The notes beneath the pieces are model-generated. The model saw only the letters and a list, made by a program, of their open reading frames with translations, was not told the DNA's origin and made no database searches. Position numbers and translations under genes: made by a program. DNA of 64,000 bases from Candidatus Bathyarchaeia archaeon (GTDB lineage Archaea > Thermoproteota > CALKCG01 > B24), in contig JAVZJD010000001.1 of the NCBI GenBank assembly GCA_038870975.1, positions 768,001 through 832,000 of the forward strand, given 5' to 3'. Every line of letters begins with the position of its first letter. The first letter of the stretch is position 1. Below are positions 14,117-27,370 of the stretch, in pieces.

Positions 14117-14689
14117 TTGCCTAGGAAACTTCTGGCCGCTAGGGCTGATTTGGTTGATGAATTATCTAGGATGGCCAAAGCCAGAAATCAGACTGTCTAC
14201 GGGTTTTTAAACAACATTCTTGAACAGGCTTTGAGACTCCACAAAATGGACATTAAGATTGAAGACGTTGCGAACTCCTACATGGTTATAAAGAACCTTA
14301 AAAACTTGGGTTTCATCCCCCTTCCTGAAGACTTCGCCTATAGGGCTCTAGATGGTATTATTAAAAGTAAGAGTATAGCTGACTCATTTTTTAAACTCGG
14401 TGAGTGGTATGGTAGAGTTTTAGCCGCGCAACTTCCAGATTTTAAACCGATGGAGCTCTTGAGGACTGTTATCAGTGAAATTGCTTGGACAGCTTCGGAA
14501 GTCTCGATTGTTGAAAACGGTGGTGAAATCACTGTTAGATGTATAGGTCCGAGGTTTTCAGAGTCTTATACGTTGGTTTTAGCCAGTATGATTGAGGGCT
14601 TCGCGTTCTCAATAGGCTTTAAAACGACTAAACGCTATGTGACTAGAGGTGTGATCTTTCTAAACCTTAAGAGTGAGATTAATCAATAG
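14117..14689 (+). CDS. Hypothetical protein with RHH-like N-terminus and V4R-like C-terminus (paralog 1)
   Basis: KLLAARADLVDELSRMAK..NQTV..FLN.ILE followed by F.KLGEWYG...EITVRC...IEG...GF; similar to the next ORF. Confidence 0.55.
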   Translation: MPRKLLAARADLVDELSRMAKARNQTVYGFLNNILEQALRLHKMDIKIEDVANSYMVIKNLKNLGFIPLPEDFAYRALDGIIKSKSIADSFFKLGEWYGRVLAAQLPDFKPMELLRTVISEIAWTASEVSIVENGGEITVRCIGPRFSESYTLVLASMIEGFAFSIGFKTTKRYVTRGVIFLNLKSEINQ

Positions 14690-14713: not shown

Positions 14714-15307
14714 ATGGTTTTACCTAAACAGTCGAAGGATAAAAAGCTTGTTTGGGTTAGAGCAGATATACTCTCCCATATAAGCCGAATAGCAAATAGA
14801 GAAGGTAAAACCATAACAACATATGTTAACGAGGTTTTAGAACAGTCGATTCGAGTTTACGATATGAAGCTCACGTTAACTGAGGTTATAGATTTATACA
14901 TGCTCACTAGGATCAGCAGGGAAGGTGGAAATCTAACAATACCTAGGGATGTAGTCAAGTACTTAATATCCAAAGTCTATAATTCGAATAGAGAAGAGCT
15001 GATGCAGATATTCTACGACACTGGCGCATGGTTTGGCAAATACATACTGGCGAGAATAGGCAGTGAAAACCTGGTAGAAAGGCTTCGGCAGATTCTATAC
15101 GTGAATATATGGGATTTAAATGAAGTTTACGTTGATAAGAATGGTAATACTATTTCGATTAGGTGTGTAGCCCCACAGCTTTCCATGGAAGAGACTGAAC
15201 TCTTAGCCTCTTATGTAGATGGTATGTTGGGTTCTATTGGTTTTAAACCAGTTGAACGTGAGGTGATAAGGGGAATAATAATGGTTAAAGTTGAGGGTGG
15301 GGTGTGA
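14714..15307 (+). CDS. Hypothetical protein with RHH-like N-terminus and V4R-like C-terminus (paralog 2)
   Basis: KLVWVRADILSHISRIANREGKTI..YVN.VLE, FYDTGAWFG, ISIRC, VDGMLGSIGF; tandem paralog of 14117-14689. Confidence 0.55.
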   Translation: MVLPKQSKDKKLVWVRADILSHISRIANREGKTITTYVNEVLEQSIRVYDMKLTLTEVIDLYMLTRISREGGNLTIPRDVVKYLISKVYNSNREELMQIFYDTGAWFGKYILARIGSENLVERLRQILYVNIWDLNEVYVDKNGNTISIRCVAPQLSMEETELLASYVDGMLGSIGFKPVEREVIRGIIMVKVEGGV

Positions 15308-16372
15308 GTGGATAATCCCACTGTACGTAAAGCACTGTTGTATGAAAGTGTCAGAGGGGGTCTTGTTAGATGCCTTCTATGCGAAAGACGCTGTTTAATA
15401 TCTGAAGGGGCTACGGGCTTCTGTGGTACGAGAATCAACATGGGTGGGTTTCTCTACACAATTGTCTACGGAGATATAAACGCGATATCTGTAAACCCCA
15501 TAGAGAAAGGTTACCCAACCGTTGGGTAGCCCTCTAGAAAGCCGCTATATCACTTCTATCCAGGGACCAAAGCCCTTACTTTCTCCACTTGGAGTTGTAA
15601 TTTTACATGTCCATGGTGTCAAAACTGGGTACTCTCAAAGTCTAAACCAGACCCATCTAAGGCGAATTACATAAGTCCTAGAGAGATGATCGATTTAGCC
15701 ATTAAAAGTGGATGTCAGGGTCTTTCAGTATCTTTTACAGAGCCTACTCTACTATTCGAGTATTCGCTTGACGTCTTTCCTCTGGCGCTAAACGCAGGAC
15801 TGTACACGAATTTTGTGAGTAATGGCTATATGACAGTTGAAGCTTTAAAAATGCTCCGCGACTCGGGTCTCCAGTCAATAAAAATAGATGTTAAAGGGGG
15901 TTTAGAAACGGTTAAAAGATTTTGCGGGGCCGACGTCTCCATAGTGTGGAGGAACGCCGAACTCGCGAAAAAGATGGGTGTACATGTTGAAATAGTTAAC
16001 CTAATAATTCCAGGTGTTAATGACGATGAAGCTACGTTGCGAGAGATTATTGAAAATCACGTTAAACGCTTAGGCGTAGAAGTTCCAATACATTTCACAG
16101 CGTATTATCCGGCGTATGAGTTTAAAGCACCACCCACGCCTGTTGAAAAGCTTGAAGAAGCCTATAGAGTTGCCAAAAGCTTCGGCGTTAAATACCCATA
16201 TATAGGTAATGTCCCAGGACATAAGTATGAGAATACTTACTGTCCGAATTGCAACCGTATCTTGATAAGGAGGTTTGGCCTGTTCAGAGTTGAAGTTAAA
16301 CTTAGGGCTGATGGTAGATGTCCAGGCTGCGGTGAACTAATCCCCATAAAACTTTGGAAAAGCAGTACTTAG
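15308..16372 (+). CDS. amrS: AmmeMemoRadiSam-system radical SAM enzyme; exons 15308-15507 and 15508+30=15538-16372, 344 aa after splicing
   Basis: N-terminal CLLCERRC...G.CG.R, NPIEK|KPLYHFYPG across the junction, CNFTCPWCQN (CX3CX2C), SFTEP, VSNGY, IHFTAYYP, YIGNVPG, ENTYCPNC, CPGCG; both halves are in the same frame, separated by a 30-nt insert with TAG. Confidence 0.9.
15508..15537 (+). other. Predicted bulge-helix-bulge mRNA intron (30 nt)
   Basis: AGAG(15502-05) pairs with CTCT(15532-35); 3-nt bulges AAA(15506-08) and AGA(15536-38); 10-bp intron stem GGTTACCCAA/TTGGGTAGCC; cutting after the second bulge nucleotides gives ATA GAG AAA AAG CCG = IEKKP. Confidence 0.85.
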
Positions 16373-27022: not shown

Positions 27023-27138
27023 GGGCCCGTGGCGCAGAACTCCGCCTATAGTAAGTGAGACATAAGCGGGGTGTGCAAGCAGGACAGCGCATCGGCCCTC
27101 TAAGCCGGGGGTCGTGGGTTCAAATCCCACCGGGCCCG
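27023..27138 (+). tRNA. tRNA-Arg(TCT) with a 41-nt non-canonical D-loop intron (27038-27078); CCA not encoded
   Basis: Acceptor stem GGGCCCG/CGGGCCC, D-stem GCGC/GCGC, anticodon arm TCGGC-CCTCTAA-GCCGG, T-arm GTGGG-TTCAAAT-CCCAC. Confidence 0.93.
27038..27078 (+). other. BHB tRNA intron at position 15/16
   Basis: Central helix GCGC(27032-35)/GTGC(27073-76); bulges AGA(27036-38) and AAG(27077-79); intron stem ACTCCGC/GCGGGGT; outer pairs T-A and G-C. Confidence 0.85.
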
Positions 27139-27370
27139 CTTCTAAGACCTTGTCGGAAGAATTAAACCCGTAATTTTGAATCCATGCCTACTCCATCTTC
27201 TCTATCTGATACAGAATAGTAGACGTTAGTCTCTTATTCCTGCGATAAACTTCAAAGGATATTAAACAGCGTCTTACACATATAAAGACCCATTTTCCAA
27301 ATGTTGGGGAATAGGAAGGTTCATATCGGCAGTCATGTAAAGATGCGTGGGTGATCAACTTTTAATAGAA

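Follow-up and report, generated by a model that had tools for sequence, protein, structure and literature searches.

A predicted bulge-helix-bulge intron within the coding sequence of an amrS-like radical SAM gene of Bathyarchaeia

Introduction

Bulge-helix-bulge (BHB) introns of archaeal mRNA have been reported for cbf5 (Watanabe 2002; Yoshinari 2006; Yokobori 2009, PMC2738675), and a BHB intron was found in the 5′ UTR of the Haloferax volcanii HVO_1309 mRNA in a 2020 paper in which cbf5 was explicitly given as the only other mRNA example (PMC7714728). In the searchable literature, BHB introns inside archaeal coding sequences were found to be documented for cbf5 only, a 2025 paper citing only the cbf5 work, and no report of such introns was found for Bathyarchaeia or for radical SAM genes. 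The cleavage of relaxed and mis-positioned motifs by the splicing endonuclease EndA is conferred by the Crenarchaea-specific loop and its lysine (PMC3241643), and the relaxed HBh′/BHL class of motif is accepted only by the (alpha-beta)2 and epsilon2 forms of EndA (PMC5829648, PMC3241643).

The insert described here, located in an amrS-like gene of Bathyarchaeia, resembles the cbf5 introns of Crenarchaeota, which often have a relaxed motif, in being short, of BHB type and within coding sequence, in the predicted hetero-tetrameric EndA of its host, and in an apparent lineage-specific gain followed by precise loss. Unlike them, it is found in the gene of a radical SAM enzyme and in Bathyarchaeia, contains a long co-varying inner hairpin with almost no exon-exon helix, and its splicing is predicted. 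The non-canonical tRNA introns of Thermoproteota (PMC3241643) share with it a 4-bp helix, 3-nt bulges and the relaxed HBh′/BHL class and, as predicted for the amrS insert, a cut after the second bulge base and a dependence on the CSL lysine, which is kept in the alpha subunit of the present host, whereas the amrS substrate would be an mRNA that contains no tRNA body and whose exon half-helix lies in Ile-Glu codons under coding constraint. The HVO_1309 intron is likewise an EndA substrate in an mRNA, as is predicted for amrS, but it lies in an untranslated leader where the reading frame stays intact, and the host EndA is homodimeric.

In eukaryotes, the HAC1 and XBP1 mRNAs are cleaved by IRE1 and ligated by RtcB or Trl1. 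The resemblance to the pathway predicted for amrS is that proteins alone, guided by RNA structure, excise a short intron from a coding mRNA, that a tRNA ligase joins the exons, and that the reading frame or product is altered, whereas HAC1/XBP1 splicing uses IRE1 and a different stem-loop motif and is regulated by stress.

Results

The amrS-like gene and its insert

The window, that is, the whole stretch of 64,000 nucleotides analysed, corresponds to G000:C1:768001-832000, where G000 is a hot-spring Bathyarchaeia genome of 1.85 Mb in two contigs (C1 and C2), whose close relatives are hot-spring MAGs labelled Candidatus Bathyarchaeia. The gene at 15308-16372 (+) was found to encode an AmmeMemoRadiSam-family radical SAM enzyme (amrS-like). 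With the TAG and 10 extra residues read through, it matched TIGR04337 (AmmeMemoRadiSam system radical SAM enzyme) at 234.4 bits, above the curated cut-off of 220 bits, and it contained the CX3CX2C motif as CNFTCPWC at 15596-15619. This motif is located downstream of the insert but ahead of the first in-frame ATG (15686) and is therefore translatable only as a continuation of exon 1. The features of the gene were found to be arranged as follows (window positions).

15308-15507 (+): amrS-like exon 1, which starts with GTG and comprises 66 codons plus two bases of the Lys codon at the junction; corresponds to the N-terminal half of the TIGR04337 match
15502-15505 (+): 5′ strand of the central helix H (exon), AGAG, pairing with 15532-15535
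15506-15508 (+): 5′ bulge AAA, unpaired in the minimum free energy (MFE) fold; predicted cut 15507/15508
15508-15537 (+): predicted 30-nt bulge-helix-bulge intron, the removal of which restores PIEKKPLYHF and a 344-aa ORF
15509-15531 (+): inner intron hairpin, 10 bp (15509-18/15522-31), loop CCG; fold -13.6 kcal/mol
15527-15529 (+): in-frame TAG inside the predicted intron; the unspliced frame ends after 73 codons
15532-15535 (+): 3′ strand of the central helix H (intron), CUCU, pairing with AGAG 15502-05
15536-15538 (+): 3′ bulge AGA, followed by an outer helix of about 1 bp; predicted cut 15537/15538
15538-16372 (+): exon 2, from the third base of the Lys codon at the junction to the stop TAG (16370-72)

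Around the break, the AGAG and AAA nucleotides were found to be followed by GGUUACCCAA-CCG-UUGGGUAGCC (15509-31), then by CUCU, AGA and the exon. Two opposite 3-nt bulges, AAA and AGA, are thus separated by the 4-bp helix AGAG/CUCU. Excision of 15508-15537 gave a stop-free product reading ...NPIEKKPLYHFYPGTK..., with NPIEKKPLYHF at a junction that is the same as in intron-less orthologues. Removal of 15509-15538 yields an identical mRNA, so that the sequence by itself fixes the cut positions only to within 1 nt. The 61-nt region folded at -18.6 kcal/mol (z = -3.67), which was equalled by 1 of 200 shuffles.

In the canonical hBHBh′ form, a helix of 2 bp or more closes the motif on either outer side; here the inner helix contained 10 bp and the outer exon-exon helix about 1 bp. 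The motif is therefore of the relaxed type (HBh′/BHL class), and its 3′ site does not lie in a closed bulge.

The sequence-only reading had joined the ORFs 15308-15529 and 15686-16372 into one gene on the ground of their shared frame and had placed exactly 30 nt with an in-frame TAG in the PIEKKPLYHF motif; the ORF list and the letters bore out both points. Its 10-bp hairpin, AAA and AGA bulges and AGAG/CTCT helix were recovered in the MFE fold, where the central helix gains a fifth pair, U15501-A15536. Translation agreed with its claim that cuts after the second bulge base would leave an enzyme with CX3CX2C, and its description of a relaxed BHB with an outer helix of about 1 bp was accurate.

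Directly upstream of amrS, two tandem paralogous ORFs of about 190 aa each were found at 14117-14689 and 14714-15307 (+), the latter ending one base before the amrS GTG start; a search for an NCBIfam match found none for either. Elsewhere in the genome, a second AmmeMemoRadiSam paralogue (G000:C2:153379-154377, +) was found to be uninterrupted, with 42% identity and a TIGR04337 score of 329 bits, and such a paralogue was found in every genome of the order. An AMMECR1 gene was found at G000:C1:485023-485556.

Inserts in orthologues and their covariation

In a six-frame search of 41 related genomes, the orthologue was found to be split at the same residue within the genus and the order, through TAG, TGA, TAA or a change of frame. 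When the site was extracted from the contigs of genomes and metagenomes, 14 different sequences with the intron were obtained, which came from 13 species genomes of one Bathyarchaeia order and from metagenome contigs. The insert lengths were as follows.

30 nt: G000
29 nt: five congeners of G000 and metagenome variants
33 nt: G006 and G007
21 nt: G010
20 nt: G015
23 nt: G013
29 nt: G014 and G011

All 14 inserts were found to split one and the same Lys codon between its second and third bases, in identical phase, and shared the layout [A/C]GAG, AAA, GG-hairpin-CC, CUC[U/G] and A-N-A; the 5′ bulge AAA was invariant and the 3′ bulge was A-N-A in every case. Most of the lengths were not multiples of 3. 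Inserts of 20, 23 and 29 nt change the reading frame, and an in-frame stop was found in each of those of 21, 30 and 33 nt.

In the alignment of these sites (A1), 92% of cells were paired, against 43-55% with the partners slid. Compensatory changes on both sides were found in 9 of 14 pairs, and the covariation score was reached by none of 500 shuffles, these figures being drawn from related sequences in which the central helix has few independent events (one or two A-U to C-G switches). Double compensatory changes were found in 8 of the 10 inner-hairpin pairs, so that the structure is conserved among orthologues with compensatory changes. The first pair of the central helix was A-U in 9 sequences and C-G in 5; the third base of the Ile codon in the exon (AUA or AUC) therefore co-varies with an intron base, and the exon is thereby tied to the intron as a BHB requires.

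Distribution, gain and loss

Beyond this clade, in other Bathyarchaeia, in Thermoprotei, in Hadarchaeota and in further groups, about 150 orthologues were found to read PIE(K/I)KP without a break, and intron-less orthologues contained the exact predicted junction. In a gene tree built with the junction masked and rooted on 40%-identical paralogues, 15 intron-bearing sequences fell in one clade of 17 (support 0.98), the two intron-less members being G008 and one metagenome contig. The order contains 17 species; the site was assembled in 14 genomes, 13 of which contained the intron. The simplest reading of this distribution would be a single gain at the base of one Bathyarchaeia order and precise loss in one or two lineages. 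A second copy of the 30-nt insert was looked for in G000 and not found, and the insert, being unique in the genome, is therefore not a dispersed repeat.

A second insertion site in the same gene

G008 (contig C5), of the same order, was found to be without the PIEK/K intron and to contain a different 30-nt insert 90 nt downstream (L008:1772-1801), which breaks the Trp codon of the radical-SAM motif CPWC. This insert contained the central helix GCCC/GGGU, the bulges AUA and AAG, a 10-bp inner stem and a 4-bp outer helix, as in a canonical hBHBh′ motif predicted from sequence. Cuts after the second bulge base restore CNFTCPWCQNW exactly, and the G008 insert is a putative independent case of the same cutting rule working within the amrS family.

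Beside their 33-nt intron, the amrS genes of G006 and G007 (L010 and L011, minus strand; ORF 1489-3231 in L010) were found to contain a 335-aa LAGLIDADG-type intein at CPW/C, ending in ...THN followed by CQNW, one codon away from the G008 intron site. A larger in-frame insertion was found at the intein site CPW/C in G022 (L022).

Selection on the exons

Six genus-level orthologues, five of which contained the frame-shifting 29-nt insert, gave a dN/dS of 0.145 for exon 1, of 0.076 for exon 2 up to the first Met (about 50 codons that contain the Fe-S motif and have no start codon of their own) and of 0.075 for the rest of exon 2. Both exons are under purifying selection, and therefore both are translated in the frames that splicing would join.

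This result bears on the possibility that the gene is broken, being either a pseudogene or a 73-aa fragment with a start-less C-terminal fragment, beside which the hairpin is incidental. Public annotation calls only C-terminal fragments (e.g. NCBI 'radical SAM protein, partial'), and the uninterrupted paralogue could cover the function; but throughout a clade of the rank of an order both exons, including the start-less Fe-S codons, have stayed open under strong purifying selection, and the selection on both therefore excludes a pseudogene or a separately expressed C-terminal fragment. The structure of the insert is kept while its sequence and length vary, and the further lesions expected in a dead gene were seen in none of the 14 copies. 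A broken gene is accordingly very improbable. The spliced-form protein (full length, more than 80% identity, PIEKKP junction) was not found among 5.8 billion proteins, where only truncated fragments of 220-289 aa were present; the absence of a full-length entry is neither for nor against splicing.

Recoding of the uncut transcript

A TAG readthrough, a frameshift, or a ribosomal hop over the hairpin as in T4 gene 60 would leave the RNA uncut, and the insert does contain a stable hairpin with a stop codon after a Lys codon, with A-rich tracts on both sides. Readthrough is ruled out by the frame-shifting insert lengths, and it would place 7-11 non-conserved residues into an otherwise invariant motif. 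The lengths of 20, 21, 23, 29, 30 and 33 nt would require a separate recoding event in each lineage. A hop from AAA (15506-08) to AAA (15538-40) ends out of frame, so matching take-off and landing codons that keep the frame, as in a bypass of the T4 gene 60 type, were not found. Recoding also leaves unexplained the conserved 4-bp exon-intron helix, the exact 3-nt bulges and the covariation, and we regard it as highly improbable.

Host splicing machinery

The host genome was found to contain two endA genes (in the regions of G000:C1:251571-251813 and C1:270239-270493) and RtcB, as expected of a suitable host. The EndA alpha subunit matched crenarchaeal catalytic alpha subunits (2CV8, 3P1Z_B) at about 1e-45, with the catalytic Tyr and His kept and with an SKPK loop aligning with EKPR of A. 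pernix (K44/R46); the second EndA copy was found to be without the catalytic His, as in structural beta subunits. From these features the host EndA is predicted to be a crenarchaeal-type two-subunit (alpha-beta)2 enzyme of broad specificity that contains the specificity loop. The RtcB gene (G000:C1:62226-65000, -) contained an in-frame interruption of about 1.4 kb within a 986-aa open frame, which is presumably an intein.

ARAGORN called introns in 13 of the 44 tRNAs of G000. In the window, a weak Rfam tRNA match (30.8 bits at 27069-27138) was found within 27023-27139 (+), which ARAGORN reported as an intron-bearing tRNA in its intron mode, default ARAGORN finding no tRNA in the window; this region may be a tRNA with a non-canonical intron.

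Removal of the insert from the RNA by another nuclease and ligase, or by self-cleavage, would agree with the near absence of an outer helix. Against it, all 14 copies, as well as the G008 insert at the second site, fit the ruler geometry of EndA exactly, and the host alpha subunit contains the loop known to permit relaxed motifs. At 20-33 nt, and 30 nt in G000, the inserts are much too small for ribozymes, for group I or II introns or for other catalogued RNA elements, and no Rfam family matched at E<=1 in 15200-15900. Such a route is scarcely probable. An intein reading of the 30-nt insert was also considered and rejected.

An artefact of assembly or sequencing, for which there speaks only a general possibility in MAG-derived sequence, is for practical purposes excluded by the same-site insert in 13 independent species genomes and several independent metagenome contigs.

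Other split genes in the genome

BHB skeletons that restore a long ORF were sought throughout G000 and ranked by helix length, and the top three were amrS, pcm and cbf5. A search by structure only (4-bp helix and inner stem) gave about 100,000 hits, of which 1,097 passed the ORF-restoration filter, mostly at gene boundaries; only the top-ranked sites among these are interpretable, and a count of mRNA introns would need homology data. Ranking by inner-hairpin energy alone was rejected, as it favours long spurious candidates.

The pcm gene (PF01135; G000:C2:34531-34559, -) was found to be split at profile position 60/61 (GQTISAP/HMV) by a BHB insert of 29 nt, the inner stem of which contains 9 bp. 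In cbf5 (G000:C2:281640-281656, -), a 17-nt BHL insert was found at the catalytic Asp codon (GGTL/D/PPATG); its helix is CUCU/GGAG, its bulges are AGA and AUA, and the exon helix contains 8 bp. A further, BHB-like insert of 19 nt (CGGG AAA ... CCCG AUG) was observed at G000:C1:609048-609066 (+), where it joins two long frames as ...NPAYG/KYHWSGH....

Discussion

The positions 15508-15537 are best explained as a tRNA-type (bulge-helix-bulge) intron inside the amrS-like coding sequence, a real mRNA intron, to which we give a probability of roughly 0.9. The sequence-only reading had proposed an mRNA intron in a gene family other than cbf5, and this proposal gains support from the orthologous inserts, the covariation, the selection on the exons and the presence of EndA and RtcB. 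Both of the computational checks that it had named came out in its favour: the orthologue alignment contained inserts at the same site with co-varying stems, and amrS headed the genome-wide BHB scan in helix length, ahead of pcm and cbf5.

From the observed geometry, covariation, product restoration, selection and enzyme genes, we infer that the amrS mRNA would be cleaved and ligated. In the proposed pathway, the exon AGAG of the pre-mRNA would pair with the intron CUCU, flanked by the bulges AAA and AGA and by the 10-bp intron hairpin; the (alpha-beta)2 splicing endonuclease of the host would cut each bulge after its second base, and RtcB would join the exons and probably circularise the intron. 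The spliced mRNA would give the 344-aa enzyme, and the unspliced mRNA only a 73-aa fragment without the Fe-S motif.

A broader reading, towards which we lean with caution, is that the amrS intron is one of a dynamic set of Bathyarchaeia mRNA introns, in which EndA-dependent mini-introns may arise, disappear and arise anew at different conserved-motif sites in protein genes, so that mRNA splicing by the tRNA machinery may be routine and systematically mis-annotated. This reading is suggested by two different sites in amrS and, within a single genome of 1.85 Mb, by cbf5, pcm and probably further genes. Gene callers give the amrS enzyme only as truncated 'partial' entries, so that such genes are missed or mis-scored when the metabolism of Bathyarchaeia is reconstructed. 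The 61-nt amrS RNA is a clean, testable substrate for the specificity of a non-crenarchaeal (alpha-beta)2 endonuclease. Extension to a second gene family would mean that the tRNA machinery splices archaeal mRNAs of more than one exceptional gene, and the case for amrS is a strong one, made by an intron that co-varies across a whole order, another insertion site within the gene and the companion introns predicted in cbf5 and pcm.
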